Positions 2,972 through 51,761 of a stretch of DNA of 64,000 bases are shown here, piece by piece. Made by a program: the position numbers and the translations under genes. Position 1 is the stretch's first letter; each line of letters opens with the position of its first letter. The stretch comes from Leptospirillia bacterium (GTDB lineage Bacteria; Nitrospirota; JACRHL01), in contig JBHHVE010000001.1 of assembly GCA_046754085.1 (NCBI GenBank), positions 71,821 to 135,820 of the forward strand. Reading direction: 5' to 3'. The notes beneath the pieces were generated by a model, which searched no databases, had not been told where the DNA came from, and saw nothing but the letters and a program-made list of their open reading frames with translations.

Positions 2972-2998
2972 ATAATTGGTTTGCGCGCCCCGGTGAGA

Positions 2999-4207
2999 CT
3001 ACCCGACGGTGAACGCTTCGGCGTTCGCCTTTGCGGGGTCGCGGAGCACGGACAGCAGCATGGCCACGCGCCGTTCCCAGGTATGGTCCGAGGCGGCGCG
3101 CTGCCTGCCGCGTGTGGCGATGGCCTCCCGTTCCGCGTCGTTGGCAAGGTAGTGGCGCGCAAGCCGCACACAGTCGTCAATCGTGCGGTAGGTGACAATT
3201 TCCGAGCCGACTTTGTAGAGCCGGTGCAGGTCGGGGTTGTCGTGGGTCATATAGAGGCTGCCGCTCATGGGCCCGTCGAAATCCCTCAGCTTGAGGGCGT
3301 AGAAATCCTCGCAGTGGCCGATGGTGCCGAGCCCGAGTACGATTTTGGACTGTGCGAACAGTGCGGGCACACGGGCGGTTTCCAAGTGCCCGGCTTCCCA
3401 CCCGGTGCCGTGTGCCTGAACCTGGATGCCCGCACGCCGCAACGCCAGTACCAGTGCTTCCCTAATTCCGTAACGGGCGCCGACAAAGCAGACATCGTAT
3501 TGTTTTTCGCGTTCGGAATCCGGGTAAAAGAGGTTCGGGTCGCTCGCTTCCGGAAAGAACAGGGCGGGGCAGCCTTCCTTGCGGTACCAGTCGGCGCATT
3601 CCGGCGCGGCGGTTAGGGCCAGATCCAGGTGGGGAATCAGTCCGTGGGTGCCACCCCACACACCGTCTATCGGCTGGCCCCAATACTGGTGGCGGTCGTC
3701 CATGGCGATGTTGACGATCACGGTGCCATAGCGGGTGCGAATATCGGCCAGTGCTTGGGGGTCGATGAAGTCAGCCCAGGTCTGGGCAAGAATCAGGTCT
3801 GGCGGGCGGGAATTGGCGGCAAGTTCCGCCACCATTTCCAGCAGCCGCTCGGTATTGCTTTGTCGGCGAATGGATCTTGGTCCAGGGTGGTTTTGCCCGT
3901 AGCTGCCGTCCTTGCGGGTGAAGCAGGTGACGGTGCAGTACGCCTCAAGGGCCTGAATCAAACCGCTTCGATCCTGGGCCTCATCGGTGCCGAGAAAGAA
4001 GATATGAGGCGGGCCTTTTTCGGCCTCCAGTCTCGCGGCCCGCTGCCCGAGCCGCCCGATCAGCATCTGTTTGAACGGCAGCGGCTCCGGTCGACCCTGG
4101 TAGTGGCGGACCGTGGCGTGATAGGCCCGCACCGTTTTTTTGGCCTTGAGCCCGCGGTTGAGGGCATAAAAAAGCGGGATTCGCCGCAGGACGTTGCGAA
4201 TGCTCAC
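2999..4207 (-). CDS. Glycosyltransferase, family-1-like (CgeB-type C-terminal GT domain)
   Basis: 402 aa. The C-terminal region (GARYGIREALVLALRRAGIQVQAHGTGW...LGLGTIGHCEDFYALKLRDFDGPMSGSLYMTHDN) resembles the CgeB/Glyco_trans_1_2 family. Its stop overlaps the downstream FkbM start in an ATGA arrangement. Confidence 0.5.
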   Translation of the reverse strand: MSIRNVLRRIPLFYALNRGLKAKKTVRAYHATVRHYQGRPEPLPFKQMLIGRLGQRAARLEAEKGPPHIFFLGTDEAQDRSGLIQALEAYCTVTCFTRKDGSYGQNHPGPRSIRRQSNTERLLEMVAELAANSRPPDLILAQTWADFIDPQALADIRTRYGTVIVNIAMDDRHQYWGQPIDGVWGGTHGLIPHLDLALTAAPECADWYRKEGCPALFFPEASDPNLFYPDSEREKQYDVCFVGARYGIREALVLALRRAGIQVQAHGTGWEAGHLETARVPALFAQSKIVLGLGTIGHCEDFYALKLRDFDGPMSGSLYMTHDNPDLHRLYKVGSEIVTYRTIDDCVRLARHYLANDAEREAIATRGRQRAASDHTWERRVAMLLSVLRDPAKANAEAFTVG

Positions 4208-5079
4208 CCCGGGATGCTCTGTGCCGTTGCGAAGAGGAGGTCTTTGTAGGTCTGGTTGGCCAGCTCGATATTGTGCTCCCAGCGGGAAAGCCCTCCGTCG
4301 GCATCCAGCACGTAGATGTCGTAGCCTTGGCTGACAAGCAGGCGCGCGGCTTCCAGAGAGCCGTCCGTACCGGTCTCCATGAGGATTTTCGGGCGCCGTT
4401 CGGCGATGGTTTCGGCCAGACCCCGAACGACCGGTAACTCGAAATTTTCGGCGTCGATCTTGATCACGTCGGGGTGGATGTTCCGCTCCGCCAGCAGCCC
4501 GTCAAGGCGAACCATCCCCACCTTTACCTTTCCCTTCATTTGACCGGTGAGCACGTCGGGCATGCGGGATTCGTCCGACAAGGTGTTCCAGGCGGCATAC
4601 CGCAGGCCAAAGTCGGTGATCTCCAGTTCGCCATCCGTATCCCCCACCCCCAGGTTCAGCGCGGTGATGTTGTCCCGTGTCCGGGTGTTTTTCTCCAGCA
4701 CGCGAAATGTGGAGGGGGTTGGCTCGAAGGAGACCACGTGCCCCCGGTCACCGGCGAGGTGTGAAAACAGCAGCGAAAAATAGCCAAAGTGGGCCCCCAC
4801 GTCCAGAACCGTATCACCGTCCTTTACCGCGTGGATCGCGAGCCGTGTTACCGTTTCGTCAAAGAACCCGTAGGTATAGAGGGTCTCGGAAATCACCTCG
4901 GGCAGGACCACGGTCATGGGATCGCCGAAGAACAACCGGGTGTGGTATTCCCGGCCGTGTCCGCCCAAGCGGGAGGCCAGGCGCATCATAAACTTGTGCG
5001 CTCCCGGATCCATCAGTTTGGCCAGGGGCGGTTGATGCATACGGCGCGACGCGGTATTCAGGGCCTCCAGGGTGTTCAT
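4204..5079 (-). CDS. FkbM-family SAM-dependent methyltransferase
   Basis: 291 aa with the VLDVGAHFGYFS SAM-binding motif and the overall FkbM pattern. Coupled by a 4-nt overlap to both neighbours. Confidence 0.8.
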   Translation of the reverse strand: MNTLEALNTASRRMHQPPLAKLMDPGAHKFMMRLASRLGGHGREYHTRLFFGDPMTVVLPEVISETLYTYGFFDETVTRLAIHAVKDGDTVLDVGAHFGYFSLLFSHLAGDRGHVVSFEPTPSTFRVLEKNTRTRDNITALNLGVGDTDGELEITDFGLRYAAWNTLSDESRMPDVLTGQMKGKVKVGMVRLDGLLAERNIHPDVIKIDAENFELPVVRGLAETIAERRPKILMETGTDGSLEAARLLVSQGYDIYVLDADGGLSRWEHNIELANQTYKDLLFATAQSIPG

Positions 5080-5879
5080 GTGTTCACCGCGCTCCGGAGC
5101 GGCTTTTCCAACACGTACATGCCAAGACCGAAGTCGAGCCCGCCGCCGTCTCCGATGCGGGCCTGGTGGGGTTGAACGTCCATTTGTACCTGTCCCAACT
5201 CATCCACCATAGCCATTTCAACCAGCTTCAAATCCGGAAACAGGTCCAGTGCATCCTCCGCCTGAAAGATGCGTTGACCATTAAACTGGACACGGGTTGT
5301 CCCCATTGGCAAAGAGACATACAGGCGACCGCCGGGGGCCAGCACACGCACGAGTTCGACTCCCGCCTTGCGGGACCCCTGCGGGTCGATGGGGTCGCCG
5401 TACCGGCCCAGGCCGATGTGTTCGATCACGTGCATGCTCGAAAGTGAGTTTACTGAATCGTCCGCAAACGGCAATTGCAGAATGGAACCGGACACCCCGG
5501 AAAAGCCATTCAGGGTCACGGCTGCCGGGCGGATGTCGATAAACGCCAGGGGGCATACCGTGGTGAGCATGCCGACGAAACGCACATCCGATCCCACGTC
5601 CACATGAAACGAAGGTCCCGCGTCCTGAATCTTTTTAAATGCCCACACCGCCTGGTAGAAGTAGTGGGAATCGACCCCGGTGCGGGTGGTCCGGTCGAAC
5701 AGGCAGGGGTGGAAATCCCTGGCCCTTGCTTTGCCTCCCGCGGCTCGGAAGCGGAACCAGTCTTTGACAAACCCGGCATATCGAAAGGGCGCACGAAAGG
5801 GACGGGTCTCAAGCATCGGTCCCGCCATGCGCAGCAGCCAGAGGGCGAGCCGCTTGGCCCATGGCCGCGCTTTGACCAT
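5076..5879 (-). CDS. Class I SAM-dependent methyltransferase (DUF268/Methyltransf_11-like)
   Basis: The listed ORF 5076-6206 has a ~109-aa low-complexity R/P/H-rich N-terminal extension that overlaps the upstream carbamoyltransferase. An internal Met at 5879 (MVKARPW...) lies just after the upstream stop at 5918 and is the likely true start. The body carries a VDVGSD...LPFADDSVNSLSSMHVIEHI methyltransferase core. Confidence 0.65.
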   Translation of the reverse strand: MVKARPWAKRLALWLLRMAGPMLETRPFRAPFRYAGFVKDWFRFRAAGGKARARDFHPCLFDRTTRTGVDSHYFYQAVWAFKKIQDAGPSFHVDVGSDVRFVGMLTTVCPLAFIDIRPAAVTLNGFSGVSGSILQLPFADDSVNSLSSMHVIEHIGLGRYGDPIDPQGSRKAGVELVRVLAPGGRLYVSLPMGTTRVQFNGQRIFQAEDALDLFPDLKLVEMAMVDELGQVQMDVQPHQARIGDGGGLDFGLGMYVLEKPLRSAVNT

Positions 5880-5917
5880 CTCTTTCAGGCGGGTTGCGGC
5901 ATTGGCGGCGGGGTGGG

Positions 5918-7660
5918 TCACGTTTTTTCCAAAAGGTACGGCCCCAGGGCAAGGTGGGTCAGGCCCGACAGATCCACCGTGCGGATGGCGTCTTCCGGGG
6001 TGCAGACGTTGGGCTCGCCGTGCAGGTTGAAACTGGTGTTGAGCACTCCGCCGATGCCGGTGTGGCTCTTGAAGGTGGAGATGATCTCGTAATAGTCGGG
6101 GTTCCACGCCTTGAGCACGGTTTGCGGGCGAACGGTGTGATCCCGGGGGTGAATGGCCGCGGCAAGGTCTTTTCGGGCCTCCTCGGTGCTCCGGAAGGTG
6201 ATGCACATGTAGGGGGCAAACAGCTTTTCCCAGTTCACGATGTAGCGAGGCAGGTCCACATCGAGAATGCTGGGTGTGAACGGCATCCAGAAATCGCGGC
6301 TCTTGATGGCATCGTTGATCAGCCGCAGGTTGTCGAAGTTGCTCGGATTGGCCAGAATCGAGCGGTTGCCCAAGGCCCGGGCACCGAATTCCATGGGTCC
6401 GCTGCAGCGGGCAACCACGATGTCCTGCGCGAGCAGACGGCCAATTTCGGAGTTGATGCTGTCCGGGCGGGAAACCTGATACCGGTCTTTTGCGCCGGCG
6501 TCCCGGATGGCCTTTTCGATGGCGTCTTCACCGAAATCCATGCCCAGATACAGGTCCTGCAGCGGCGCCACCGGGATATTGGGGGCGTGTTGGACGTTGC
6601 CCCATACCGCGGCGCCGATGGCACAGCTTTCATCGGCCGCGGAAGGCGTGACGTACAGTTTTTCAATGCGCTCCGACTCTGCGAGCAACTGGCATGCCTT
6701 GACGTTCATGAACACCCCGCCCGCAAGGGCGACATTGGCGCACCCGGTATGTTCGACCCAGTGGTGGACCCACTGCAGCACCAGGGATTCAGTCAATTCC
6801 TGAATGGCTCCGGCAACGTTGTCGAAGCGCTGGAAGCGATAGATTTTCTCCAACGCTTCCGGCAGTGCGGAGGGGGTGACCCGGCTCCGCCAGCGGCCAT
6901 TCTCATCCACCCGGATCAGGCCCTTGAGCTTTTTGACGAGGGGGGCGTAGTACCGGGATTTTGCATAAGGAGCCAGCCCCATGACCTTGAATTCGTGTTC
7001 GCCCCCCTTCATGCCCAACAGTTCGGTGGTCGTGGTGTAGTAGTGACCCAGGGAATTCTGCTGGGGGTCGCGACACAGTTCGGTAATTCTGCCGTCCTCC
7101 ATCAGGCTGACGGTGGCCGATATCGCATCGCCCTGGCCGTCCAGGGTGAAGATCAGTGCCCGCTCCCATTCCTGCACATTGGGGAGGGTGCTGTAGGTGT
7201 GGGAGGTGTGGTGGTCCATGGTCACCACCCGGTCCTGGGGCATGCCGAGGCAGTTGGAAAAGTGATCAAGCATTTCCTGCCGCAACGCCGCGCCCTGCTC
7301 TCGAGCCTTCATCCGGCGTTGGCTCAGCGCCCAGCCCATGTGAGTCTTCAACAGCATGGCGCGGAGACCGGTGGCCTGCCATTCGGGGTCCAGATGGTGA
7401 CCATATTGATACGGCTTGAAACCCCGGTTTTTCAGATGCAGATACCCGAATGGGGAATTCTGATACAGCACGGCCAGGTCAATCTGCTCCGGGGGGAGAA
7501 TGTGATCGTGGATATGGCGAATGGTTAATTCCGGAAAGCCGGTGCTGTTCTTGATCCGGTTGAGCCGTTCCTCACTCTGGCAGAACGTAATGTGCCCGTC
7601 CTGAATCAGGCAGACAGTGGCGTTGTGACCATATGCGATGCCGAGAATGTTCAAGGTCAT
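5918..7660 (-). CDS. Carbamoyltransferase, NodU/CmcH family
   Basis: 580 aa. The N-terminus ILGIAYGHNATVCLIQDG matches the ASKHA-like domain of NodU/NovN. The C-terminal carbamoyltransferase domain carries GPMEFGARALGNRSILANP. The start overlaps the flippase stop in an ATGA arrangement. Confidence 0.85.
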   Translation of the reverse strand: MTLNILGIAYGHNATVCLIQDGHITFCQSEERLNRIKNSTGFPELTIRHIHDHILPPEQIDLAVLYQNSPFGYLHLKNRGFKPYQYGHHLDPEWQATGLRAMLLKTHMGWALSQRRMKAREQGAALRQEMLDHFSNCLGMPQDRVVTMDHHTSHTYSTLPNVQEWERALIFTLDGQGDAISATVSLMEDGRITELCRDPQQNSLGHYYTTTTELLGMKGGEHEFKVMGLAPYAKSRYYAPLVKKLKGLIRVDENGRWRSRVTPSALPEALEKIYRFQRFDNVAGAIQELTESLVLQWVHHWVEHTGCANVALAGGVFMNVKACQLLAESERIEKLYVTPSAADESCAIGAAVWGNVQHAPNIPVAPLQDLYLGMDFGEDAIEKAIRDAGAKDRYQVSRPDSINSEIGRLLAQDIVVARCSGPMEFGARALGNRSILANPSNFDNLRLINDAIKSRDFWMPFTPSILDVDLPRYIVNWEKLFAPYMCITFRSTEEARKDLAAAIHPRDHTVRPQTVLKAWNPDYYEIISTFKSHTGIGGVLNTSFNLHGEPNVCTPEDAIRTVDLSGLTHLALGPYLLEKT

Positions 7661-9036
7661 GTCCTATGGAGTTGGCGAACCAGTTGCCGGTTGGTGATCA
7701 AAATGGCGCCGATGTATACCGTTGATGCGGCGGCGTATGCCATTGCAACACCGTTTATGCCGTATGTGGGCGCCATCACAAGGGCCAGGGTGACGAACAG
7801 CACGCCATGGATCAGCTTGGGCACAAAGATCATGCCCGGTTGCCGATGACACTCGGCCCGCATGGCGAGTAGCTGCCCAACCCAGAACAGTGCGGTCGCA
7901 GCAGTAAGTACCCAAAGGACATCCGCATGGCGAGCAAACTCAACAGTGGTGAAAAAGGTAACGATTCGAGGTCCGAAAGCGAAGCACGATAATACGACAG
8001 GAAGGCAAGCGGTTCCAAATCCCAGTATGGCGATACACAGCACCCGGTAGCTTTCCCGATCCTGTTCCGGGGACGTCATGTCCCCGGCCTTTTGATAAAT
8101 CACCGGCAGCAGGAACTGGTTGAGCACGCTGATCATCAAGGTAATGGGGGCCACCGCGATCTGAAGCAGGGCGGCGTAGAGCCCTACCTCGTATTCACCG
8201 AACAGGCTTTGAAGTACCCAGCGATCAGCATAGGTGCTCAGGATCGCCGGCACCGCAAGGAGGGTAAAACCCCCCGCATACCGCAGAAAAGAGCGGTAGT
8301 CCTCCGGAGTCGGTACGGCGGTTCGACGGTCTTTGATCATCCCCGCAAGTTCAGGGTTCCGGCGGGCGAGAAGCAGATGGGAGAAGACCACAACGGTGGT
8401 GCCCAGCAGATAGCCGGCCAGTGCGGCTTCCGGCGCGTGCCACAGCAACGCCACCGCCGCAACGGCGATCAGTGTTCGCAACCAAGCGTCACCGGCCTGA
8501 TGAATGGCGACCACCCGGCGCGCTTTCATGGCCAGCCGGAATGCGTTGAAAGAGGTATACCATCCGGTGACAACGGTCAGTCCCACGGCGAGGCCCACCA
8601 CTCCCCACCACCCGCTTTCACTCCCCTTGGGAACCAGGAACAGAATGGCCCCACCGGTCACCAGTACGATAGACAGCGCGCCTTGATGAATGCGGGAAAG
8701 AATAGCCAGATAGCGGCCAAGGGTTCGTTGTTCGTGATAGATCGTGTAGTGGCGCAGGACCCCTTGCCCCAGCGGACCGTAGATGAGCAGATTGAACGCC
8801 CCGGAAATCGTCAGTGCAAGTGCCAGCCTGCCGTACCCCTCGGGGCCAAGCAGGTGGGTCAGCAGTTTGATGCCCACCAGGGCCCCGACAAACGCAAGCC
8901 CCTGTCCGGCGGTCACCCAGAGCAGGTCGCCACTGTTTGCGCGCAGCCGCTGGATCAGCAATTGGAGTCGCCGTGCCGGAGTGAATGGATACGGGAAAGG
9001 GCCGGTGTAATGGACATCAGCCGACCGCAAGCCCAA
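7657..9036 (-). CDS. Polysaccharide flippase, Wzx-like (MOP superfamily)
   Basis: 459 aa and highly hydrophobic, with about 12 predicted TM segments. Its position inside the Wzz/carbamoyltransferase operon supports the call. Confidence 0.7.
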   Translation of the reverse strand: MGLRSADVHYTGPFPYPFTPARRLQLLIQRLRANSGDLLWVTAGQGLAFVGALVGIKLLTHLLGPEGYGRLALALTISGAFNLLIYGPLGQGVLRHYTIYHEQRTLGRYLAILSRIHQGALSIVLVTGGAILFLVPKGSESGWWGVVGLAVGLTVVTGWYTSFNAFRLAMKARRVVAIHQAGDAWLRTLIAVAAVALLWHAPEAALAGYLLGTTVVVFSHLLLARRNPELAGMIKDRRTAVPTPEDYRSFLRYAGGFTLLAVPAILSTYADRWVLQSLFGEYEVGLYAALLQIAVAPITLMISVLNQFLLPVIYQKAGDMTSPEQDRESYRVLCIAILGFGTACLPVVLSCFAFGPRIVTFFTTVEFARHADVLWVLTAATALFWVGQLLAMRAECHRQPGMIFVPKLIHGVLFVTLALVMAPTYGINGVAMAYAAASTVYIGAILITNRQLVRQLHRT

Positions 9037-10540
9037 TGCGGAGCAGCAGCCGGGACTGCCAGCCGTCCGGGGCCGTACGCCGTTCCACCCGCTCCAGGGC
9101 GCCGCCGACTTCGATGTGAAGCCTCCGGTTTGGAGAACGGGAAAGGCTCACTCCCGATTCCCAATGGGTTTCACGCTCGGGCCGGTTGACGTAATGGGTG
9201 CGCCAGGCGGCGTGCAGGGTCAGGGTTTGCACCGCCCCGGGGCGGTGGTAGGTCAACGCCGCCGAGCGTCCGTCCGGCCCCAGGGCGTCGCCGATGATGC
9301 GGTGCCGGTAGGTGTAGCCGGAACGGTAGGTGCCGTGGCGATACCAGACGTTACCCTCCGTCGGCCAGTCGGTGGCGGCCACCTCCAGCCGCAGGGTGTC
9401 GTTTTGATTGGCGCGTACCCCGGCCAGCAACAGGCCCAGCCGCATCGCCGGCTTGGCCGGCCACAGGGAGGCCTCGTCCTCGCCGGCATACTCACCGTAC
9501 AGTCGAACGGCTCGGCCGGGTGTTCCATGCAGGGGCAGATCAAGGGTGATATCGATGCCCGCAATGGAATTGCTGGTATCGGTGTCCGGCCCCTGATTAT
9601 TGCCGGTGATGATGGTGAACAGGTCGGAGCCGGAGACTCCCTGGCCGTCACCAGCCATCATGGTGGTGCGGGATGCCCCCACAAGCAGGCGCGGATGTGG
9701 CCGCCACATCAGCCGCAGGCCGGTCAGAACCGGGTGGGGAACATAGCGCGCTTCTTCCAGTCGGGCCAGAAAGAACGAGAAGTCCGCCTGTCCCAGGGGT
9801 GACAAGCGGCCCTGAAAGCGGTGGGGGCGGCGCAGCCCGGTGCGGATGGCGGGCAGCGGCGGGGCGTTGTCGGTCAGTAGAAACCCGCCGTGGGCGCCCG
9901 GCCCCCAGACGATGGGTTGCCTGCCCAGACTGGTGAGCAGGGGGCCGGTTTCCATGGTGATGTAGCCTTCCTGCCACCCCGGATTGCCGCCGCCCGCCTC
10001 GCCCAGCGTGAGCCGTGGGGTCACCGATGCGGCAACCTTTTGGCCGGGGGTGTCCAGGTGGAGTTGCAGTTCCATGCCCCACCGTTCGGAGAAAGTGCGG
10101 CCGCCGTCGTTTCGGGTGAGCGGACCGCCGTTGTCCGCGGGGACGGTCCCGAATGATGTGGCTTCACCCTCGGTGTAGCCGCCGCGCAGGTCCGCCCGTG
10201 CATAGTGATTACGGGTGCGCCGCTCGGCTTCCCCGCGAAGCCGGAGTAATACCTCCCGATCGGCATCGTGCGCCGGGGTGGCGGACTGCAACGCGGTTTG
10301 AAGTTGCTCCCAGGAGATGGGTCTGACACCCCACGCCTGGTCATGCAGCACCCCTCGGGGTGCCAGGCTGTCCATCAGCCGGTAGGCGGGGTGGTCCAGG
10401 GGAACCCAGGTGGATGCAGCGTGTGCCACGGTGGCCGGACTCATGAGCCAGAGTGCGCCCCATGCGTAAGCCATAACACAGGAGAGGGCCGCCCGAAGCG
10501 CGCGCTGGACCGACTTCCAGGGGAATGTTGGCAAGATCAT
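9017..10540 (-). CDS. Outer-membrane beta-barrel protein, Wzi-like (capsule/EPS assembly) candidate
   Basis: 507 aa. Signal-peptide-like N-terminus (ALSCVMAYAWGALWLMSPATVAHA). Gly/Tyr/Arg-rich composition with alternating beta-strand pattern. Sits between the Wzz and Wzx genes. The Wzi assignment is inference from size and context. Confidence 0.35.
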   Translation of the reverse strand: MILPTFPWKSVQRALRAALSCVMAYAWGALWLMSPATVAHAASTWVPLDHPAYRLMDSLAPRGVLHDQAWGVRPISWEQLQTALQSATPAHDADREVLLRLRGEAERRTRNHYARADLRGGYTEGEATSFGTVPADNGGPLTRNDGGRTFSERWGMELQLHLDTPGQKVAASVTPRLTLGEAGGGNPGWQEGYITMETGPLLTSLGRQPIVWGPGAHGGFLLTDNAPPLPAIRTGLRRPHRFQGRLSPLGQADFSFFLARLEEARYVPHPVLTGLRLMWRPHPRLLVGASRTTMMAGDGQGVSGSDLFTIITGNNQGPDTDTSNSIAGIDITLDLPLHGTPGRAVRLYGEYAGEDEASLWPAKPAMRLGLLLAGVRANQNDTLRLEVAATDWPTEGNVWYRHGTYRSGYTYRHRIIGDALGPDGRSAALTYHRPGAVQTLTLHAAWRTHYVNRPERETHWESGVSLSRSPNRRLHIEVGGALERVERRTAPDGWQSRLLLRIGLAVG

Positions 10541-11445
10541 GCGGGGGTGGAATCCCGCTGTCCCCTACGCAGTCGCATCAGGATGCGGATCAGTGCCAGA
10601 CCGCCGCCCAGCAGGCCGCCTGCGATCAAGCCGAAGATAACAATGGGTTTGCGCCTGGGCCGGACGTGTTTTTCCACGGGCGGGGTGATTGCCGGGTCAA
10701 TGACCCGGAGGGCATATTCCTTCTGCCCCTTGGCCAGCATGATTTTCTCCACCTGGTTTTCGAGCAGGTGGCCGATTGCCGTGCGTAGCTCCACGTTCTG
10801 GGTGTTTGCCAGTTCCGCTTTCAGATAGGCGATGTTCTTGTTGGCATCGGCGATGGCCAGCGACTTCATGTGCGTGTTGAGGCGCTGCACCAGCAGATTG
10901 GCCCAACGGGCCGCGGCCTCCCGGTCGGTCCACTCCACCGATACGGTGACCAGCCCGGTCTTCCGGTTTTCCGACACGTTGATCAGGTTCTGAAATTTTT
11001 GTGTCGCGTGCCACATGATGGGGGCTTGATCGGCGCCGGGTTCGTTTCGATTCCCGTCCTTCGCCTCAGGAGAGGACGGGGCCAGCAGCGGGAGCAGCCC
11101 CTCGTCCTTCACGAAATTGCTGATGAAGGCACGGGAGGTCAGGGTGGCGATCGCCACCTCGGTGCTGCTTTCACCGCCCCCCACGTTGATGCCGGTGAGG
11201 GCGGCAAGCCCGCCCAGTTGACCCGAGAGTTTGCCGAGACCGCCACCCCCGTCGGATACCGGGCTCGTCAGTACCTCGGCCCGGTAAACCGGCGTCATCA
11301 TCAGTGCCGTCGCCACCGAGATCAGGGTGCCGAGCACCACGCAGGCGGATATCAACCGCCACTCCGCATACATCGCCTGCCACAGGTCGAGCAGGGAAAC
11401 CTCGTTGTCGTTCGTTGCCTGAAGCGGCCCGGTCGGATCGGTCAT
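10537..11445 (-). CDS. Wzz-like polysaccharide co-polymerase / chain-length determinant (PCP family)
   Basis: 302 aa. N-terminal TM (ISACVVLGTLISVATALMMTPVY), a periplasmic coiled-coil region, and a C-terminal TM with the Gly-rich IVIFGLIAGGLLGGGLALI segment. This architecture is typical of Wzz/FepE. Confidence 0.7.
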   Translation of the reverse strand: MTDPTGPLQATNDNEVSLLDLWQAMYAEWRLISACVVLGTLISVATALMMTPVYRAEVLTSPVSDGGGGLGKLSGQLGGLAALTGINVGGGESSTEVAIATLTSRAFISNFVKDEGLLPLLAPSSPEAKDGNRNEPGADQAPIMWHATQKFQNLINVSENRKTGLVTVSVEWTDREAAARWANLLVQRLNTHMKSLAIADANKNIAYLKAELANTQNVELRTAIGHLLENQVEKIMLAKGQKEYALRVIDPAITPPVEKHVRPRRKPIVIFGLIAGGLLGGGLALIRILMRLRRGQRDSTPA

Positions 11446-12747: not shown

Positions 12748-12933
12748 CATGCGTTCCCACCGCTGTGGCGGCTGTGCGGGGAGCATGGCTAAATGAATTC
12801 CCCCTTTCCCTTGTCGTTTTGCTTCATTGGGGCTATAACTCGTTACCAACGGGGGGCACAGGGGAACTGAGCCGACCGGATTCGGGCATGCGGCAAATGC
12901 ATGGTCGATGGAGCCAATGGGGAGGGACAGGGC

Positions 12934-14172
12934 ATGGCGGGGCGAGTTCTGGGTGTGTGGTTGCTGTTTGCGGCAGGGCTGTTTTTCGCGCAGCCCGCGG
13001 TAGCCAGGGACTGCGTAGGCTGCCACGAGGCACTCCACCCCGGCATCATCGCCGACTGGAAGGCCAGCCTGCACGCCCAGGTGGGCATCAAGTGTTCCGC
13101 CTGCCACGGCAAGGACCACCGCACCGAAAAAGATGTTGCCGAGGTCAAGCATCCGACCCCCGAGGTGTGCGCCCGCTGCCACCCGGACCGGGCGGAGGAG
13201 TTCAAGCTTGGCAAGCATGCCATCGCCTGGACCGCTATGAAGGCCATGCCCACCACCCATTGGAAGCCCATGGAGATGATCGAGGGGCAGAAGGGGTGCG
13301 GCGGCTGCCACAAAATCGGGGTGAAGTCGGATGCCGAACTGGCCCAGATCAGGGAAGAGGGCAGCGCCGGCGGTGCCTCCTGCGACTCCTGCCACACCCG
13401 CCACCTGTTTTCCCGCAAGGAGGCGCGCCAGCCTCAGGCCTGCCAGACCTGCCATATGGGATTCGATCATCCCCAGTGGGAGATGTATTCCACCTCCAAG
13501 CACGGCGTGCGCTACCTGCTCAAGCAGAACGGCACCCTGCCGGAACACGTTTCCGCCCCCACCTGCCAGACCTGTCATATGGACGAGGGCAATCACGAGG
13601 TTCGCGCTCCGTGGGGTTTTCTGGCGGTGCGCCTGCCGTTGCCGGAGGACCCCCAGTGGCGGGCCGACCAGATCACCCTCCTGCAGGGGTTGGGGGTGCT
13701 TGACCCCGAGGGCAACCCCACCGAGCGGCTGGACGTGGTCAAGGCCGCCGACGTGGCGCGTCTGACCCAGGAGTCGTTCGATGAGGAGCGCAACAGGATG
13801 ATTGCCGTGTGCGCCCGCTGCCACACCGAGCGCTTTGCCAAAAACGAGATGGACAAGGGCGACAAGGTGATCCGCGCCGCCGACCATCTGGTGGCCGAGG
13901 CGATCCGTATCGTGGCTGCGCTCTACAAGGACGGCGTGCTCGCCAAGCCGGAAAGCTACGCCTACCCGTTTCCGGACCTGCTCAGTTTCCACGATGCGCC
14001 GACGCCGATCGAGCACCGCCTGTTCGTGATGTTCCTGAAACACCGTATGCGTACCTTCCAGGGGGCGTTCCACAACAACCCGGATTACACCCTGTGGTAC
14101 GGCTGGAGCGAGCTTCAGACCGATCTGATCGAGATTCGTCACCTGGGCGAGGCACTGCGCAAGGGGGGATAG
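12934..14172 (+). CDS. Octaheme c-type cytochrome, hydroxylamine-oxidoreductase (HAO)/octaheme-nitrite-reductase-like family, paralogue 1
   Basis: Eight CxxCH motifs: CVGCH, CSACH, CARCH, CGGCH, CDSCH, CQTCH, CQTCH, CARCH. A signal peptide follows the ATG at 12934, which has a GGAGGG SD 7 nt upstream. The conserved block CQTCHMGFDHPQWEMYSTSKHG is shared with the paralogue at 15064. The listed ORF starts 33 nt earlier. Confidence 0.75.
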   Translation: MAGRVLGVWLLFAAGLFFAQPAVARDCVGCHEALHPGIIADWKASLHAQVGIKCSACHGKDHRTEKDVAEVKHPTPEVCARCHPDRAEEFKLGKHAIAWTAMKAMPTTHWKPMEMIEGQKGCGGCHKIGVKSDAELAQIREEGSAGGASCDSCHTRHLFSRKEARQPQACQTCHMGFDHPQWEMYSTSKHGVRYLLKQNGTLPEHVSAPTCQTCHMDEGNHEVRAPWGFLAVRLPLPEDPQWRADQITLLQGLGVLDPEGNPTERLDVVKAADVARLTQESFDEERNRMIAVCARCHTERFAKNEMDKGDKVIRAADHLVAEAIRIVAALYKDGVLAKPESYAYPFPDLLSFHDAPTPIEHRLFVMFLKHRMRTFQGAFHNNPDYTLWYGWSELQTDLIEIRHLGEALRKGG

Positions 14173-14180
14173 GATTACCC

Positions 14181-14774
14181 GTGTGGGCACTGACCCTATC
14201 CGTTCTTGCGGCGATGGACGTCCTGTTGATCATCGCCATTCTGTACGGCTGGGTGGCGAAAGGGGCGGGCCGCCGCAAGTTGCTGGCGTTTCTCGTGCTC
14301 GGGGTGTTTCCGCTGTTGTGGGGCACCGCGGCCTTCTCCTACAACTTCAACCGCATCAAGGATGTGGAATTCTGCGCCACCTGCCACGCCATGCAGGATC
14401 ATGTGAGGAGCCTTCAGGCCGATAGCGAGGAGCCCTTGTCGGCGTTGCATTATCAGAACAATTTCGTGCCCCAGGAGACCGCCTGCTACTTCTGCCACAC
14501 CGGTTACACCTGGTTCGGGCCGCTCAAGGGTAAATTCAACGGCATCCGCCACATTTACGTGGCGTACATTCAGGGGGTGCCGGACAAGCTGAGCATTTAT
14601 GAGCCATATCAAAACAGGGACTGCCTGCAGTGCCACGGCAAGTCCAAGCGCTTCAGGTCCCAGCCGGTGCACAACAGAAGGGCCGACATGATGGACAACC
14701 TGCAAAACGGCACTTTCTCGTGCCTGACCGAGGGCTGTCACGACCTGGCCCATCTCCTGCCGGAGGACTGGTAG
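14181..14774 (+). CDS. NrfH/NapC/NirT-family membrane-anchored tetraheme cytochrome c (quinol dehydrogenase)
   Basis: GTG at 14181 directly after the HAO-like stop, preceded by AAGGGGGG. N-terminal TM helix (WALTLSVLAAMDVLLIIAILYGW). Heme motifs are CATCHAM (the CxxCHxM signature of NrfH heme 1), CYFCH, CLQCH and the non-canonical CLTEGCH. The listed ORF 13809-14774 includes an upstream antisense-overlap extension. Confidence 0.75.
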   Translation: MWALTLSVLAAMDVLLIIAILYGWVAKGAGRRKLLAFLVLGVFPLLWGTAAFSYNFNRIKDVEFCATCHAMQDHVRSLQADSEEPLSALHYQNNFVPQETACYFCHTGYTWFGPLKGKFNGIRHIYVAYIQGVPDKLSIYEPYQNRDCLQCHGKSKRFRSQPVHNRRADMMDNLQNGTFSCLTEGCHDLAHLLPEDW

Positions 14775-14981
14775 GTGGTTAACGATCTGACCCCCCAATT
14801 CAAGGTGGCCCTGGTCTGCAACATTCTGGGGACGGTGATGCTGGGCGCGTCCATGTTCGCCGACCATCCCCTGTTTTTTATGATCATTGTGATGCTGGGG
14901 GTGGGGCTGCTGCTGACCGGTTTCGCCATCTGGGTGTGGATGGTGCTGGGCGAGGCCCACGGCAAGGGGTTGTTCCGGTAG
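14775..14981 (+). CDS. Small hypothetical membrane protein, two predicted TM helices
   Basis: 68 aa. GTG start immediately after the nrfH-like stop. Two hydrophobic segments: FKVALVCNILGTVMLGASMFA and FFMIIVMLGVGLLLTGFAIWVWMVL. It is sandwiched between nrfH-like and the second hao-like gene. Confidence 0.35.
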   Translation: MVNDLTPQFKVALVCNILGTVMLGASMFADHPLFFMIIVMLGVGLLLTGFAIWVWMVLGEAHGKGLFR

Positions 14982-15063
14982 CGGAGCATGATGCCATGAG
15001 TACCCGGACGATCTGTTTCAGGCTTTTTTGACTTTGATTTGAATTGTAAGTGAAGGATCACAA

Positions 15064-16587
15064 GTGAACATTCAATTGAACGGCCAAGATGGCGGCACGG
15101 TGCAGACCCTTCTGACGGGCGCCGCCCTGACGCTGGCCTTTTTGCTGACCCTGTTGGCGCTGCCGGCCCTGTCGGGAGCGGCGGCTCCGGTGCGCCTGGC
15201 CGAGCTTTCCGTGGAGTCGCAAAACTGCGTGAACTGCCACAAGCAGGACAACGTCAACGTCTACCAGCAGTGGGGCAAGAGCAAGCACTACGGCGCCAAC
15301 ATCGGCTGCTATGAGTGCCACCAGGCCGACAAAAACGACCCGGACGCCTTCAAGCACAGGAAGGGACCGTGGATTTCCACCGTCGTGACCCCCAAGGATT
15401 GCGCCCGTTGCCACGAGAAGGAGGCCCGGGAGTTCGCCGAGAGCCACCACTCCAAGGCGGGCCGCATTTTAGGCTCCCTGGATAACATCCTGGCCGAGGT
15501 GGTGGAGGGCAACCGCGGCTTTGTCACCACCGGCTTTCCGGACGGCGTCTCGGCCGCCGCCGCCAACGGTTGCTGGCAGTGCCACGGCAGCGAGGTCAAG
15601 GTGCTCAAGGATGACAAGGGCAACAATACCGGCAGGCTCGATCCCGCCACCTGGCCCAACAGCGGCATTGGCCGTATCAACCCGGACGGCAGCGAGGGCA
15701 GTTGTTCCGCCTGTCATCAGCGCCACGATTTCTCCCGTGCCCAGGCGCGTCAGCCGGAAAACTGCGGCAAGTGTCACATGGGGCCGGACCATCCGCAGAT
15801 CGAGGTCTACAACGAGTCCAAGCACGGCATCAATTACCACGCCAACAAGGACGAAATGAACCTGGACTCCACCAAGTGGGTGGTGGGCGAGGACTACTTC
15901 GCGGCCCCCACCTGCGCCACCTGTCACATGTCCGCCACCCGGGACATGCCGGTGACCCATAACGTCGGGCTGCGCATCAAGTGGAACAACCGCCCGGTGC
16001 ATTCCAAGCTGGCGCATCTGACTGACAAGAAATGGGGCCTGCCGTCCGCCAGCGTAACCGGTGATGAACGTCGGACCAACATGGAAAACGTGTGCCTGGC
16101 GTGCCATGCCAAACCCTTCACCGATAATTTCTTCACCCAGTATGAGGCGCTGATCGAGCTGTACGACAGCAAGTTCGCAACCCCCGGAGAGGCGCTCTAC
16201 AAGGCCGCCACCGCGGTGCTCAAAAAGGCCGAGGGGGAACGCTACGCCAAGTTCAGTCACAAGATTGACTACACCTGGTTCGAACTGTGGCACCACGAGG
16301 GGCGTCGCGCCCGGCACGCCGCTTCGATGCAGGCGCCGGACTACACCCACTGGCACGGCACCTATGATCTGGCGAAGAATTTCTACTCGGAATACATTCC
16401 CGAGATCAGGGAGATCATCCACGACAATCAGGAAGGCCCGGCAGCCAAGGAGGCGCTGGTGCTTGAGGCCCTGCTGGAAGAGGTGCTGGCGAGCCCGAAC
16501 CATCAGTGGTTCATCGGCGAGGTGTCGGACGAGGAACAGAAGGCCCGCGACAACCGGCGCAAGGAGTTCCTCGAGCGCTACCAGTAG
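15064..16587 (+). CDS. Octaheme c-type cytochrome, HAO/ONR-like family, paralogue 2
   Basis: 507 aa with a signal peptide (TLLTGAALTLAFLLTLLALPALSGAAA). Eight CxxCH motifs: CVNCH, CYECH, CARCH, CWQCH, CSACH, CGKCH, CATCH, CLACH. The CGKCHMGPDHPQIEVYNESKHG block is conserved with paralogue 1. A GAAGGA SD lies upstream. Confidence 0.8.
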   Translation: MNIQLNGQDGGTVQTLLTGAALTLAFLLTLLALPALSGAAAPVRLAELSVESQNCVNCHKQDNVNVYQQWGKSKHYGANIGCYECHQADKNDPDAFKHRKGPWISTVVTPKDCARCHEKEAREFAESHHSKAGRILGSLDNILAEVVEGNRGFVTTGFPDGVSAAAANGCWQCHGSEVKVLKDDKGNNTGRLDPATWPNSGIGRINPDGSEGSCSACHQRHDFSRAQARQPENCGKCHMGPDHPQIEVYNESKHGINYHANKDEMNLDSTKWVVGEDYFAAPTCATCHMSATRDMPVTHNVGLRIKWNNRPVHSKLAHLTDKKWGLPSASVTGDERRTNMENVCLACHAKPFTDNFFTQYEALIELYDSKFATPGEALYKAATAVLKKAEGERYAKFSHKIDYTWFELWHHEGRRARHAASMQAPDYTHWHGTYDLAKNFYSEYIPEIREIIHDNQEGPAAKEALVLEALLEEVLASPNHQWFIGEVSDEEQKARDNRRKEFLERYQ

Positions 16588-16606: not shown

Positions 16607-16642
16607 AAAAAAGCCCCGGACCAGGCGGTCCGGGGCTTTTTT
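16607..16642. terminator. Bidirectional Rho-independent terminator between hao-like paralogue 2 (+) and sulP (-)
   Basis: AAAAAAGCCCCGGACC-AGGC-GGTCCGGGGCTTTTTTATT: an 11-bp GC-rich stem with a 4-nt loop, flanked by an A-tract on one side and a T-tract on the other. It sits 20 nt after the hao stop at 16587 and ahead of the sulP stop at 16690. Confidence 0.7.
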
Positions 16643-16689: not shown

Positions 16690-18228
16690 TCAGGCCAGTT
16701 TGTCGGTGGCCACGAAATAGCTCGGGTCTTCCTGGATGTTCACCTCCACCAGGTCGCCGGCCTTTTCCAGAAGCTGACGGCACTCGGCGCTCAGGTGGCG
16801 CAGGTGGAGGTTCTTGCCGGCGCGTTTGTAGCGTTCGGCCAGGGTGTCGATGGCCTCGATGGCGGAGTGGTCCAGCACCCGTGAGTTGCGAAACTCCACA
16901 ATCACCTTGTCCGGGTCCGCCGCGGGGTGAAACAGCCGGTGAAACTGGTGGATGGAGCCGAAAAACAGCGGCCCGGACAGATCGTACACCTTGGCGCCGT
17001 CCGCGTCCTCGCTGATGGAGACGCCAATCTGCTTGGCGTGTTCCCAGGCGAAGATCAGGGCCGAGGCGATCACCCCCACCAGCACCGCGACCGCAAGGTC
17101 GGTGGCCACGGTGACGCCGGTCACCAGCACGGCGACGAACAGGTCGCCCTGGGGCACCTTGCCGAACAGCCGCAGGGAGGCCCACTCGAAGGTGCCCAGA
17201 ACGACGATGAACATCACCCCCACCAGGGCCGCGATGGGAATCATCTCGATCAGCGGCGAGGCGAACAGAATAAAGCACAAAAGCGCGAGGGCGGCGGTGA
17301 CGCCCGAGGCCCGGCCGAGACCGCCGGAGTGGATGTTGATCATGCTCTGGCCGATCATGGCGCAGCCGCCCATGCCGCCGAACAGGCCGGTGGCGGTGTT
17401 GGCGACCCCCTGGGCCACACACTCCCGGTTGCCCCGTCCACGAGTCTCGGTGATTTCGTCGATCACCCGCATGGTCAGCAGGGACTCGATCAGTCCGATG
17501 GCGGCGAAGATGATCGAATAGGGCAGGATGATCCACAGGGTTTCCAGGGTCATCGGCACCGTGGGGATGTGAAACACGGGCAGGCCGCCGCCGATGGAGG
17601 CCACATCGCCCACCGTGCGGGTATCAAGGCCGAACCCCACCACCAGCAGGGTGAGGGCGACGATGGCCACCAGAGACGACGGCACCTGCCGGGTCAGCCG
17701 GGGGAGGAAGTGGATAATCGCCATGGTCAGCGCCACCAGCCCGAGCATGGTGAGCAGTGGTTCCGTCGCCAACCATTCGCGGCCACCGTCCGCGGTGTGG
17801 ATCTGGAACTGGCTGAGCTGGGCCAGGAAGATGACGATGGCCAGGCCGTTTACGAACCCCAGCATCACCGGGTAGGGCACGATGCGCATGAACTTGCCGA
17901 GCTTCAAAACCCCGGCGCTGATCTGGATGATGCCCATCAGCACCACGGCGGCGAACAGGTACTGGGCGCCATGTTCGGCCACCAGCGCCACCATCACCAC
18001 CGCCAGCGCCCCGGTGGCGCCGGAGATCATGCCGGGGCGGCCACCGATGACGGCGGTGATCAGCCCCACCATGAAGGCGGCGTAAAGTCCGGACAGAGGG
18101 TGGACTCCGGCCACAAAGGCAAACGCCACCGCCTCCGGCACCAGGGCCAGGGCCACGGTCAGGCCTGACAGGATATCGGAGCGCAGGCGGGCGAAGTGGG
18201 TGTGGTAGATATCAAACACGAAAAACAA
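16690..18228 (-). CDS. SulP-family inorganic anion transporter with C-terminal STAS domain
   Basis: 512 aa. The N-terminus LSGLTVALALVPEAVAFAFVAGV is the SulP signature region. Multiple TM segments, then a C-terminal STAS-like domain (KVYDLSGPLFFGS...). Confidence 0.9.
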   Translation of the reverse strand: MFFVFDIYHTHFARLRSDILSGLTVALALVPEAVAFAFVAGVHPLSGLYAAFMVGLITAVIGGRPGMISGATGALAVVMVALVAEHGAQYLFAAVVLMGIIQISAGVLKLGKFMRIVPYPVMLGFVNGLAIVIFLAQLSQFQIHTADGGREWLATEPLLTMLGLVALTMAIIHFLPRLTRQVPSSLVAIVALTLLVVGFGLDTRTVGDVASIGGGLPVFHIPTVPMTLETLWIILPYSIIFAAIGLIESLLTMRVIDEITETRGRGNRECVAQGVANTATGLFGGMGGCAMIGQSMINIHSGGLGRASGVTAALALLCFILFASPLIEMIPIAALVGVMFIVVLGTFEWASLRLFGKVPQGDLFVAVLVTGVTVATDLAVAVLVGVIASALIFAWEHAKQIGVSISEDADGAKVYDLSGPLFFGSIHQFHRLFHPAADPDKVIVEFRNSRVLDHSAIEAIDTLAERYKRAGKNLHLRHLSAECRQLLEKAGDLVEVNIQEDPSYFVATDKLA

Positions 18229-18643
18229 TCCAGGTTAAATGTCGCGTATTCCGGCGTCACACGGACGCAGCCGCACCGAACCGTGGGTGGCAAATCCGCC
18301 GCTCATGCCCAAACCTGTAAGGGAAGTCAGGTATCGCCGCCGCTCCGCCGGACCCGTTGCCGGATACCGCTCTGGAGGGCCTTATTCTAAGGCGGGGCAA
18401 GACCTTGCACAACGGGTCCGGCGGCATTATCGGGCGGTTCGGGGGGCTTGGTGTGGTGGATCATGCCGCCGTAGCCCGGTGCATCCTTCACCATCACGGT
18501 ATTTTCACCCACCGGCTAGACATCCGCGCTTTTCCGTGCCCCCATTCCGCCAACCCTGGCGTTTATGGGTCCGCACGCTAGAATTAAAGTAGAGTTCTCC
18601 GTGCGTTGAGCGCGGCGGGCCGATCGGGAAGGAGGTGGGCGCC

Positions 18644-20893
18644 ATGGCGCGTTTCGGCTGGCTTCCGTGGAAGTTCGTGGTGCGGCGTATTGCCCGTGCC
18701 CACGGCTTTCTGGACCCGATTTCCATCCTCTCCCACCTGCGCCGGTTTACCCAGCCTTCGGAGGTCGCGGAACCGGTGGAGTTGTTGCGCGCCGGAGTGG
18801 TGTTGCATGCCCGCGGGCTGATCAACAGCCGGGTCATCCAGCACAATCTGGACTGGGTCTGGCCCTACTGGGTGGAGCGGCAGTTCGACCCGGAGGGCAA
18901 CGCCTTCGTACCGCGCGCCTTCTCCATCACCCACATCAACCTGACCCATCGCAACTGGACCGCCGTGGGATTGCCGGACGTGGATGCGCTGCCGATCGTG
19001 GATCCGCGCGGTCTGATCACCCCCCATCTGGACGACTGGTCCCTGGACGCCTGGGTGGTGGCCGACGACGGCCGCATACTGCTGCCGTCCCGCGCGGAAC
19101 ACGCCACCCAGCGGCTGGAGATGGATGACGATACGGTGCGGGTGGTGACCGAAACCCGGCTGGACGACCTGTTTCTCAGCGTGGTGGCTCAGGTCAATGA
19201 CGAGGACGGTGCACCGGCGCTTTCCATGGGGGTGAATGCCCGCGCCGCCGGTCCCGCCTGGGTGGTGATCTCCCTCAGGCCCTACAACCCGGAGGGAGTG
19301 CAGTTCATCCACCGGGCCGGGCTTTCGGACGACCGCACGCGCTGGCGGGTGGACGGTGAAACCGCCGTCGATTTCAGCGAACCGGTGGAGCGCCACGTGG
19401 CGTCGTCTTATGCCCACGGTGACGTGCACGCCCGCCTGCATGACCTTTCGGATCGGCACGATCACGGATGCGACGTCGGCATGCTGACTGCGGCGGCCCT
19501 GTTCCGGGTGGAGGCGGGCACCCCACGGCAGGTGACCGCCAGGGTGCCGCTCAGGCTGGAAGATGGCGGTGCGCCCCACGCCGTGCCGTGGGCGCGGGCG
19601 CTGTCCGGCGCCTGCCAGTTGGACGTGCCGGATGCCCGCTTCCAGTTTTTGTATGACGCCGCCCTACGCAGCCTGATTCTGCATTCCCCAGGCGACGTCT
19701 ATCCCGGACCCTACACCTACAAACGCTTCTGGTTCCGGGACGCCGCCTTTATGGTCCATGCCCTGCTGTGCGCCGGGCTGACCGGGCGGGCCGAACGCGC
19801 TCTCGACCGCTTCGCCCCGCGGCAGAAGCGCGACGGCTACTTCCACTCCCAGGACGGCGAGTGGGATTCCAACGGCGAGGCGCTGTGGATCATGGAGCGC
19901 TTCTGCCGCATGACCGGCGCCCCGCCCAAGGCGGCGTGGCGCACCCCCATTCGCCGGGGCGCCGCATGGATCATGGGCAAGCGCCTGCCGGAAGACAGCA
20001 GCGGAACCGCCGGGCTTTTGCCCGCCGGGTTTTCCGCCGAACACCTGGGGCCGAACGACTTTTACTACTGGGACGATTTCTGGGGCGTGGCGGGACTTGC
20101 CGCCGCCGCCCGCATGCATGACGCACTGGGGGATGTGAGCGGTGCTGCGCGCTGGCGGGACGGCGCCGAGGCCCTCTCCGGTTCCATCGATCGCAGTCTG
20201 GCGCGGGCGGCGGAAAGGCTGGGGCGCCCGGCCATGCCGGCGGCGCCCGGTCGCCGCCTCGACGCCGGCGCCATCGGCTCGATCGCGGCGGGTTACCCGC
20301 TACAGCTTTTCCCGGCGGACGATGCGCGCCTGCTGGACCTTGCGGACTACCTGCTGGACGACTGTTTCGTCCGGGGCGGATTTTTCCAGGACATGATCCA
20401 TTCGGGTATCAACCCCTATCTCACCCTGCACATCGCCCAGGTGCTGCTGCGGGCGGGGGACCCCCGTTATCTCGACCTCGTGGAGCGCATGGCGGAGATG
20501 GCCAGCCCCACCGGCCAGTGGCCGGAGGCGATCCACCCGCGCACCGGCGGCGGCTGCATGGGCGACGGCCAGCATGTGTGGGCGGCGGCGGAGTGGCTGA
20601 TCATGGTGCGCAACCTGTTTGTGCGGGAGGAGGACGATGCCCTGATCATTGCCTCCGGCGTACCGCCCCGCTGGCTGGAGGCGGGCGAACCCTTGTGGTT
20701 CGGTCCGGCCCCCACCCTGTTTGGCCCCGTCACGGTCAGCATTGAACGCCATGACAGCGGCGCGCGGGTTGTCTGGCAGGGGGCGTGGCACGGCGCCGCG
20801 CCCCGGGTGGAAATACGCCTGCCGGGGTGTGTCCCGGTGGTTGCGGATCCCGATGCGCGGGAGGCGTTGCTGGAACGGGAGACGGTTACGTGA
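18644..20893 (+). CDS. Glycoside hydrolase family 15-like (glucoamylase/trehalase-type, (alpha/alpha)6 barrel) protein
   Basis: About 750 aa. The GGAAGGAGG SD sits 8 nt upstream of the ATG at 18644; the listed ORF starts at GTG 18635. The C-terminal half has GH15-like six-hairpin motifs: FYYWDDFWG, FFQDMIHSGINPYLT, GQWPEAIHPRTGGG. The family call comes from motif resemblance only. Confidence 0.55.
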   Translation: MARFGWLPWKFVVRRIARAHGFLDPISILSHLRRFTQPSEVAEPVELLRAGVVLHARGLINSRVIQHNLDWVWPYWVERQFDPEGNAFVPRAFSITHINLTHRNWTAVGLPDVDALPIVDPRGLITPHLDDWSLDAWVVADDGRILLPSRAEHATQRLEMDDDTVRVVTETRLDDLFLSVVAQVNDEDGAPALSMGVNARAAGPAWVVISLRPYNPEGVQFIHRAGLSDDRTRWRVDGETAVDFSEPVERHVASSYAHGDVHARLHDLSDRHDHGCDVGMLTAAALFRVEAGTPRQVTARVPLRLEDGGAPHAVPWARALSGACQLDVPDARFQFLYDAALRSLILHSPGDVYPGPYTYKRFWFRDAAFMVHALLCAGLTGRAERALDRFAPRQKRDGYFHSQDGEWDSNGEALWIMERFCRMTGAPPKAAWRTPIRRGAAWIMGKRLPEDSSGTAGLLPAGFSAEHLGPNDFYYWDDFWGVAGLAAAARMHDALGDVSGAARWRDGAEALSGSIDRSLARAAERLGRPAMPAAPGRRLDAGAIGSIAAGYPLQLFPADDARLLDLADYLLDDCFVRGGFFQDMIHSGINPYLTLHIAQVLLRAGDPRYLDLVERMAEMASPTGQWPEAIHPRTGGGCMGDGQHVWAAAEWLIMVRNLFVREEDDALIIASGVPPRWLEAGEPLWFGPAPTLFGPVTVSIERHDSGARVVWQGAWHGAAPRVEIRLPGCVPVVADPDAREALLERETVT

Positions 20894-51392: not shown

Positions 51393-51761
51393 AAAAACCG
51401 CAAAAGCCGCCGGGAGGGGACTGATTGCGTCGCCGGTACGGTGCTCGGCCCCCCCGACATACCGGAGTACGCCTTTGCCCCCTGTATTTTCGGCTGAAAA
51501 GTCTATTTTGACGTCGGTTTCCGGCGCTTCCCGGGTTTTTTTAAGGAAATGCATCCGTTTTAATCCGAAATCTTCTGGTGCTGAAATGCCGGGTTTCCGG
51601 CAAAAATCCCTCCTTCGTGGGATTTTTATATAACAAATCAATAGGTTACGGATAGCTCCGCGTTGGCCTGAAATGTGCATTTACCACCCTTGGTGCGCTT
51701 TTGCTTAAGGCGTTTCCCGCCGAAAAGTATGGCGATGGTGTGATGGCGATGGTGGTGGTGA

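Follow-up and report, generated by a model that had tools for sequence, protein, structure and literature searches.

The fourth heme-binding site of a NapC/NrfH-like cytochrome encoded in the window (the whole stretch of 64 kb of DNA that was analysed) has the spacing CX4CH, and our comparison of sequences indicates that at this site CX2CH and CX4CH forms interconvert repeatedly within the subfamily, as a common and minor variation. We consider it likely that site 4 carries an ordinary exit heme, bound covalently on a slightly longer loop, that this heme is attached by general maturation and that the length polymorphism is near-neutral. The family and the motif type were already known; what appears to be new here is the site-4-specific CX2CH/CX4CH polymorphism in a large NapC/NrfH-like subfamily. 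No description of CX4CH in a NapC/NrfH-type protein was found in the literature searched.

The motif is read from the codons TGC CTG ACC GAG GGC TGT CAC as C-L-T-E-G-C-H, in frame with a GTG start that lies 9 bases past the preceding gene's stop codon, after a G-rich Shine-Dalgarno-like run (Table 1). The initial annotation had described this last motif as CX4CH and the three preceding ones as canonical, and we found all four as it stated. From the Cys and His content of the protein itself, about 0.014 CX4CH occurrences would be expected by chance in 197 residues. An NCBI MAG with the label Leptospirillia bacterium encodes an identical protein, annotated there as 'NapC/NirT family cytochrome c', and assemblies from NCBI, JGI and ENA contribute 10 further homologues at 61-74% identity. 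In this window clade of 11 homologues the motif reads C-L-x-x-G-C-H in 11/11, with G185 invariant too, and no substitution of C181, C186, H187 or H191 occurs in any of three alignments, of 11, 61 and 47 sequences. A genome scan with peptide patterns of the window clade (alignment A1), which shows breadth and gives no frequency estimate, recovered CX4CH at site 4 in 13 of 13 genome loci, from Nitrospirota, Nitrospinota, Myxococcales, Eisenbacteria, Oligoflexia and Terriglobia/Bryobacterales (six phyla). Since the C-x-x-x-G-C-H spacing is kept in 11 independently assembled homologues (61-100% identity) and in these 13 species-representative loci, with assemblies from different projects, a sequencing or assembly indel is ruled out. 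The alignment of orthologues that the initial annotation had proposed as a check thus comes out against its own error scenario.

Judged from its sequence, the 197-aa protein is a member of the NapC/NirT superfamily and an orthologue of neither NrfH, NapC nor TorC. Its match to Pfam PF03264 (NapC/NirT) reaches 46.1 bits against a gathering threshold of 24.1, with residues 33-195 covering profile positions 7-173/174, and the same family is precomputed for nearly all homologues. The NCBIfam scores, on the other hand, fall so far below their cut-offs that the protein is an orthologue of no named member: 39.2 bits versus 134.2 for the NrfH equivalog (TIGR03153), 28.3 versus 310.6 for the NapC/NirT subfamily (TIGR02161), 25.8 versus 349 for the NapC equivalog and 29.3 versus 478 for TorC. 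Pfam c3_2 gives a marginal partial match (27 versus 25 bits) over motifs 1-2, not over site 4. Searching the PDB with the 197-aa protein as a single sequence returned spurious nanobody matches only; a 61-sequence family profile found D. vulgaris NrfH (2J7A chain C) at E=6.8e-7, and the NrfH motifs CTSCHIM, CNDCH, CKACH and CTDCH were aligned in register with all four sites. CATCHAM falls on CTSCHIM and CLTEGCH on CTDCH, the heme 4 motif of NrfH, and with all four motifs in the NrfH register the CX4CH site is therefore heme 4. The view of the initial annotation that this is the fourth heme motif of an NrfH-like tetraheme cytochrome is in this way confirmed, together with superfamily membership.

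Lys118 is invariant and is aligned to a Lys of NrfH that we take to sit at the quinol site. An AlphaFold model reached pLDDT 57 with 11 sequences and pLDDT 81 with 47 sequences; NrfH was the best and only meaningful fold match of the latter model, which is heme-free and has an NrfH-like tetraheme fold. Both sequence and model place two hydrophobic helices at the N-terminus (residues 2-21 and 29-60) with the basic loop KGAGRRK between them, and the extra N-terminal helix is conserved among close homologues. His90, His164 and His191 are additional invariants of the alignments, which suggests that hemes 2-4 may all have internal distal ligands; His191 probably serves a neighbouring heme as its distal axial ligand.

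Table 1. Features of the window and small-ORF equivalents at related loci (coordinates of the latter refer to the respective locus).
Feature	Position	Strand	Remarks
Capsule/exopolysaccharide cluster	1103-11445	-	asparagine synthase, glycosyltransferase, FkbM methyltransferase, carbamoyltransferase, flippase, Wzi, Wzz
HAO-family octaheme cytochrome	12901..14172	+	423 aa, 8 CXXCH; Pfam PF13447, 8e-28
NapC/NirT-superfamily (NrfH-like) membrane tetraheme cytochrome c gene	14181..14774	+	197 aa, GTG start
N-terminal region of the cytochrome	14181-14360	+	residues 1-60, two hydrophobic helices
Heme 1 motif CATCHAM	14373..14393	+	residues 65-71; CXXCHxM, NrfH-type
Heme 2 motif CYFCH	14484..14498	+	residues 102-106
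Heme 3 motif CLQCH	14622..14636	+	residues 148-152
Heme 4 motif CLTEGCH	14721..14741	+	residues 181-187; CX4CH
Invariant His191	14751..14753	+	CH-x-x-x-H; kept in alignments A1, A2, A3
68-aa ORF	14775..14981	+	two hydrophobic helices; starts directly past the stop codon of the cytochrome
HAO-family octaheme cytochrome, IhOCC-like	15064..16587	+	507 aa, 8 CXXCH; Pfam PF13447, 8e-27
Strong hairpin terminator	16607..16642	.	16-bp stem; ends the four-gene cluster and is used by the convergent SulP gene as well
SulP gene	16690-18228	-	convergent with the four-gene cluster
752-aa ORF	18635-20893	+	GC3 0.84
Giant open frame	51762-64000	+	>=4,079 codons; runs off the window end
Minus-strand ORFs	51705-54035, 54132-55331, 55974-57068, 58866-61898, 62331-63929	-	antisense shadows
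Small-ORF equivalent, L003	10594-10800
Small-ORF equivalent, L001	10628-10852
Small-ORF equivalent, L005	2267-2539
Small-ORF equivalent, L006	5684-5923
Small-ORF equivalent, L007	5603-5857
Small-ORF equivalent, L008	5858-6043
Small-ORF equivalents, several of L010-L020

How widespread is the longer spacing? Searching 1.84 billion representative proteins with a profile gave 447 family representatives at E<=1e-3, and motifs were counted in 160 sequences, namely the best 150 of these 447 plus the close homologues of the window protein (overlap: one). In these 160 sequences it is site 4 whose length varies, and sites 1-3 hardly ever depart from CX2CH: at site 1 the counts are 140 CX2CH, 1 CX3CH, 0 CX4CH and 19 with no motif or truncated; at site 2, 158, 0, 0 and 2 in the same order; and at site 3, 146, 0, 0 and 14. 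Site 4 is CX2CH in 75 sequences, CX3CH in 2 and CX4CH in 54, the remaining 29 having no motif or being truncated. CX4CH is thus not a fixed hallmark of the family at this position, and neither is it rare there, as the initial annotation had supposed: it makes up around 40% of scorable site 4 (54/131) among the best 150 of 447 representatives and the close homologues.

The two forms are closely intermingled. On a crude neighbour-joining tree of residues 55-175, built with the motif excluded, parsimony counts approximately, and at least, 17 changes of state between CX2CH and CX4CH. One pair of opposite states, P0039 (CX4CH) and P0088 (CX2CH), is 77% identical over this core, motif again excluded, and P0013 (CX2CH) branches beside the window clade. 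Such free swapping with CX2CH argues for a minor variation, and against a special heme that depends on dedicated machinery. Nevertheless, the longer loop is under a constraint of its own and may not be strictly neutral, since Gly precedes the second Cys in 45/52 CX4CH members and the preceding spacer, between motifs 3 and 4, tends to be slightly longer (mode of 28 residues in CX4CH forms versus 25 in CX2CH). The His four residues past the motif is kept in both forms (52/52 CX4CH and 93/99 CX2CH members), and at heme 1 a Met stands two residues past the His in 127 of 140 family sequences. Some members of the family carry extra heme-binding regions fused N- or C-terminally to the tetraheme core, namely P0034 (688 aa), P0039 (676 aa), P0042 (420 aa) and P0106 (354 aa). 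These fused proteins reach up to 8 motifs, and P0106 has two CX4CH-type sites (CNDTRCH and CSDAKCH).

The cytochrome gene belongs to a cluster of four genes on the plus strand, at 12901-16587, which are tightly packed with short gaps and have one terminator at the end. It is flanked by two HAO-family octaheme cytochrome genes. The best solved relative of the 507-aa octaheme is the Ignicoccus octaheme cytochrome IhOCC (4QO5, E=2e-46) and that of the 423-aa octaheme, which is unusually short, is Kustc0458 (6H5L, E=1e-29), a reductive, nitrite-reducing HAO without the Tyr cross-link (PMC8042395). Neither flanking octaheme contains a CXXCK motif, and no pentaheme NrfA adjoins the cytochrome gene. 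Taken together, the predicted products point to a cytochrome that would link the quinol pool to two HAO-family octahemes, in a putative reductive nitrogen-oxide pathway of an uncultured Leptospirillia (Nitrospirota) bacterium. The capsule/exopolysaccharide cluster of the window lies immediately upstream of this operon, with a DUF480 gene and a DksA/TraR zinc-finger gene coming after it.

Gene contexts, taken from the loci of homologues, vary considerably. In a Nitrospirae MAG the same genes occur in a different order (two octahemes, cytochrome, small ORF), in a related Nitrospirota clade a monoheme cytochrome c replaces the octahemes, and beside more distant members there are other multiheme cytochromes or none. 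The partners of CX4CH members alone differ widely, from HAO-like octahemes to decahemes and monoheme cytochrome c. Conversely, multiheme neighbours of about 340 aa are homologous between two CX4CH loci, L005 and L006, and a CX2CH locus, L007 (E=1e-20 and 3e-18); no homology was detectable between the 400-aa and 442-aa proteins beside L006 and L007. The idea that motif type tracks the partner enzyme is unsupported in the few loci examined, where homologous partners stand beside both forms.

In the mechanism that we propose, heme 4 would be held by two thioether bonds, from C181 and C186, with H187 as its proximal ligand. The loop would be two residues longer than that of CXXCH, with Gly almost always preceding the second Cys, and the arrangement would otherwise be the same, the CX4CH hemes of Desulfovibrio cytochromes c3 being the precedent. 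Those class III cytochromes are likewise multiheme low-spin electron-transfer proteins with C-X4-C-H spacing and a retained proximal His, although they belong to an unrelated fold and family and their CX4CH positions are fixed, whereas site 4 is polymorphic here. The general cytochrome c maturation system of the bacterium would attach heme 4. Electrons would enter from the quinol pool at heme 1, with its CXXCHxM motif and the invariant Lys118, and would pass from heme 4, as the C-terminal exit heme, to periplasmic partners. In the window these partners would be the two co-transcribed octaheme proteins, both of which find their best solved relatives among reductive enzymes. In this subfamily site 4 alone tolerates the change between CX2CH and CX4CH; its length is labile in evolution and would be close to functionally neutral.

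This scheme shares much with known quinol dehydrogenases. NrfH of D. vulgaris (PDB 2J7A/2VR0) begins, like the window protein, with a membrane anchor that leads into a compact tetraheme domain, and shares with it CXXCHxM at heme 1, the Lys aligned with K118 and four motifs in the same register. The two differ at heme 4 (CTDCH in NrfH) and in their partners, pentaheme NrfA with CXXCK in one case and octahemes with eight CXXCH each in the other. Furthermore, NrfH, NapC and CymA are anchored by one helix in place of the two predicted here, and relatives of the window protein have a co-encoded small membrane ORF, unlike NrfH. The distal ligand of heme 4 in NrfH is a Lys borrowed from NrfA; in the window protein, by contrast, the invariant His90, His164 and His191 suggest that heme 4 may have a distal ligand of its own. 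The tetra-/pentaheme quinol dehydrogenases NapC, NirT, CymA and TorC (PF03264) resemble the window protein in its predicted role as an electron relay from the quinol pool to the periplasm and in serving several partner types, but it lies far below the cut-offs of their subfamilies and its partners are HAO-family octahemes.

How would such a heme be matured? Most likely the general cytochrome c maturation system attaches heme 4 and no dedicated lyase is needed. Both CX3CH and CX4CH are reportedly matured by E. coli Ccm, and the c3 used by Herbaud and colleagues is said to contain CX4CH sites. CX4CH has been listed among the minor heme-binding motifs with Desulfovibrio cytochrome c3 as the reference (PMC11492766, its reference 7), CX3CH and CX4CH are tallied routinely alongside CXXCH in genome surveys (PMC10734462, PMC5566968, PMC9250108), and tetraheme c3 was made in E. 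coli by generic ccm genes, according to the title of Herbaud et al. 2000 as cited in PMC5526843. It seems very unlikely that heme 4 requires a lyase of its own, or is a catalytic or specialised heme in the manner of CXXCK in NrfA and CX15CH in MccA. The possibility draws on the fact that dedicated lyases exist for these other non-canonical motifs, which also belong to respiratory multiheme systems (NrfI or NrfEFG for CXXCK, CcsA1 for CX15CH); there the hemes are catalytic or special and the lyase is co-encoded (PMC12285233), whereas here the proximal His is retained, the motif swaps with CXXCH and no lyase gene lies nearby. Indeed, no Ccm/Ccs Pfam domain was present among the 30 window ORFs scanned, none of these components appeared in the Pfam lists of loci L001-L008, and the WWD heme-lyase signature, sought as a regular expression, was absent from open frames of at least 100 aa in 262 kb (the window and 21 loci). 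The extra CcsA/CcmF paralogue that the initial annotation proposed to look for, or any dedicated lyase of the CcsA/NrfI/CcmF type alongside the cytochrome gene, was thus found neither in the window nor in the related loci. Moreover, switching in many lineages would each time demand gain or loss of a lyase, and the c3 precedent points to generic ccm genes. Repeated interconversion with CX2CH, a shared partner type and the absence of a nearby lyase together argue against the suggestion, made with the initial annotation, that the extended motif marks dedicated maturation or a functionally distinct heme.

Adaptive tuning of the exit heme by the CX4CH loop, through its potential, solvent exposure or docking and with general maturation retained, is a rather unlikely explanation that nonetheless accounts for several observations. 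The exit heme, at site 4, is the one whose motif varies in length; Gly is strongly preferred before the second Cys, and the length of the preceding spacer is correlated with that of the motif; and CX4CH is stably retained over a clade of 61-100% identity and over six phyla. Frequent switches, one of them between proteins at 77% identity, speak against tuning, as do the homologous partner cytochromes beside both motif forms and the very different partners found among CX4CH members. The most improbable of the explanations is that the spacing is an artefact, be it an indel or a Cys pair that forms a disulfide or a metal site in place of binding heme, which would leave a triheme protein. The unusual spacing by itself could raise that suspicion, but the same spacing recurs in the 11 and 13 independent assemblies, the site is in register both with NrfH heme 4 and with the CX2CH of paralogous lineages, and both Cys and the His are invariant. 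An ordinary exit heme on a longer loop fits these observations best.

A second constant of the neighbourhood is the small ORF that follows the cytochrome gene, a candidate small membrane subunit by its predicted helices. Equivalents of 61-90 aa follow the cytochrome gene in 7/7 distinct neighbourhoods (the window and six others, from eight loci), and a simple ORF scan found one in 8/13 genome loci. All have one architecture, two hydrophobic helices with a short turn and an invariant Pro, often as H-P-L, and they abut or overlap the stop codon of the cytochrome regardless of motif type or partner. No Pfam family matched the small two-helix ORF, which recalls NapE and TorE, small proteins encoded near NapC and TorC. 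We tentatively raise the possibility, itself doubtful, that the NapC/NrfH-like cytochrome with its two N-terminal helices and the obligately co-encoded 61-90 aa two-helix membrane protein form an uncharacterised two-subunit quinol dehydrogenase module, present in at least six phyla and serving interchangeable periplasmic multiheme enzymes, in which the heme 4 loop might act as an adjustable exit port that tunes potential or docking.

The site-4 polymorphism does not overturn current understanding, and its value lies mostly in annotation. If hemes were counted by CXXCH only, around 40% of this widespread quinol dehydrogenase subfamily would be scored as triheme and the exit heme would be missed. 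The polymorphism also constitutes a natural experiment, in that one defined heme site occurs as CX2CH and CX4CH in dozens of pairs of close relatives. Such pairs could be used to measure the effect of a two-residue loop extension on heme potential, as well as the substrate tolerance of maturation systems.

Elsewhere in the window, a 752-aa ORF at 18635-20893 has a good coding signal and no Pfam match at E<=1e-4. Five minus-strand ORFs between 51705 and 63929, rich in G, V, R and H and with no Pfam matches, are antisense shadows. The plus-strand frame at 51762-64000 is rich in Thr, Ala, Val, Gly, Asp and Ser, begins with a signal-like N-terminus and shows repeats resembling Calx-beta in its C-terminal part, as far as this is visible. 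It probably encodes a huge surface or adhesin-like protein.
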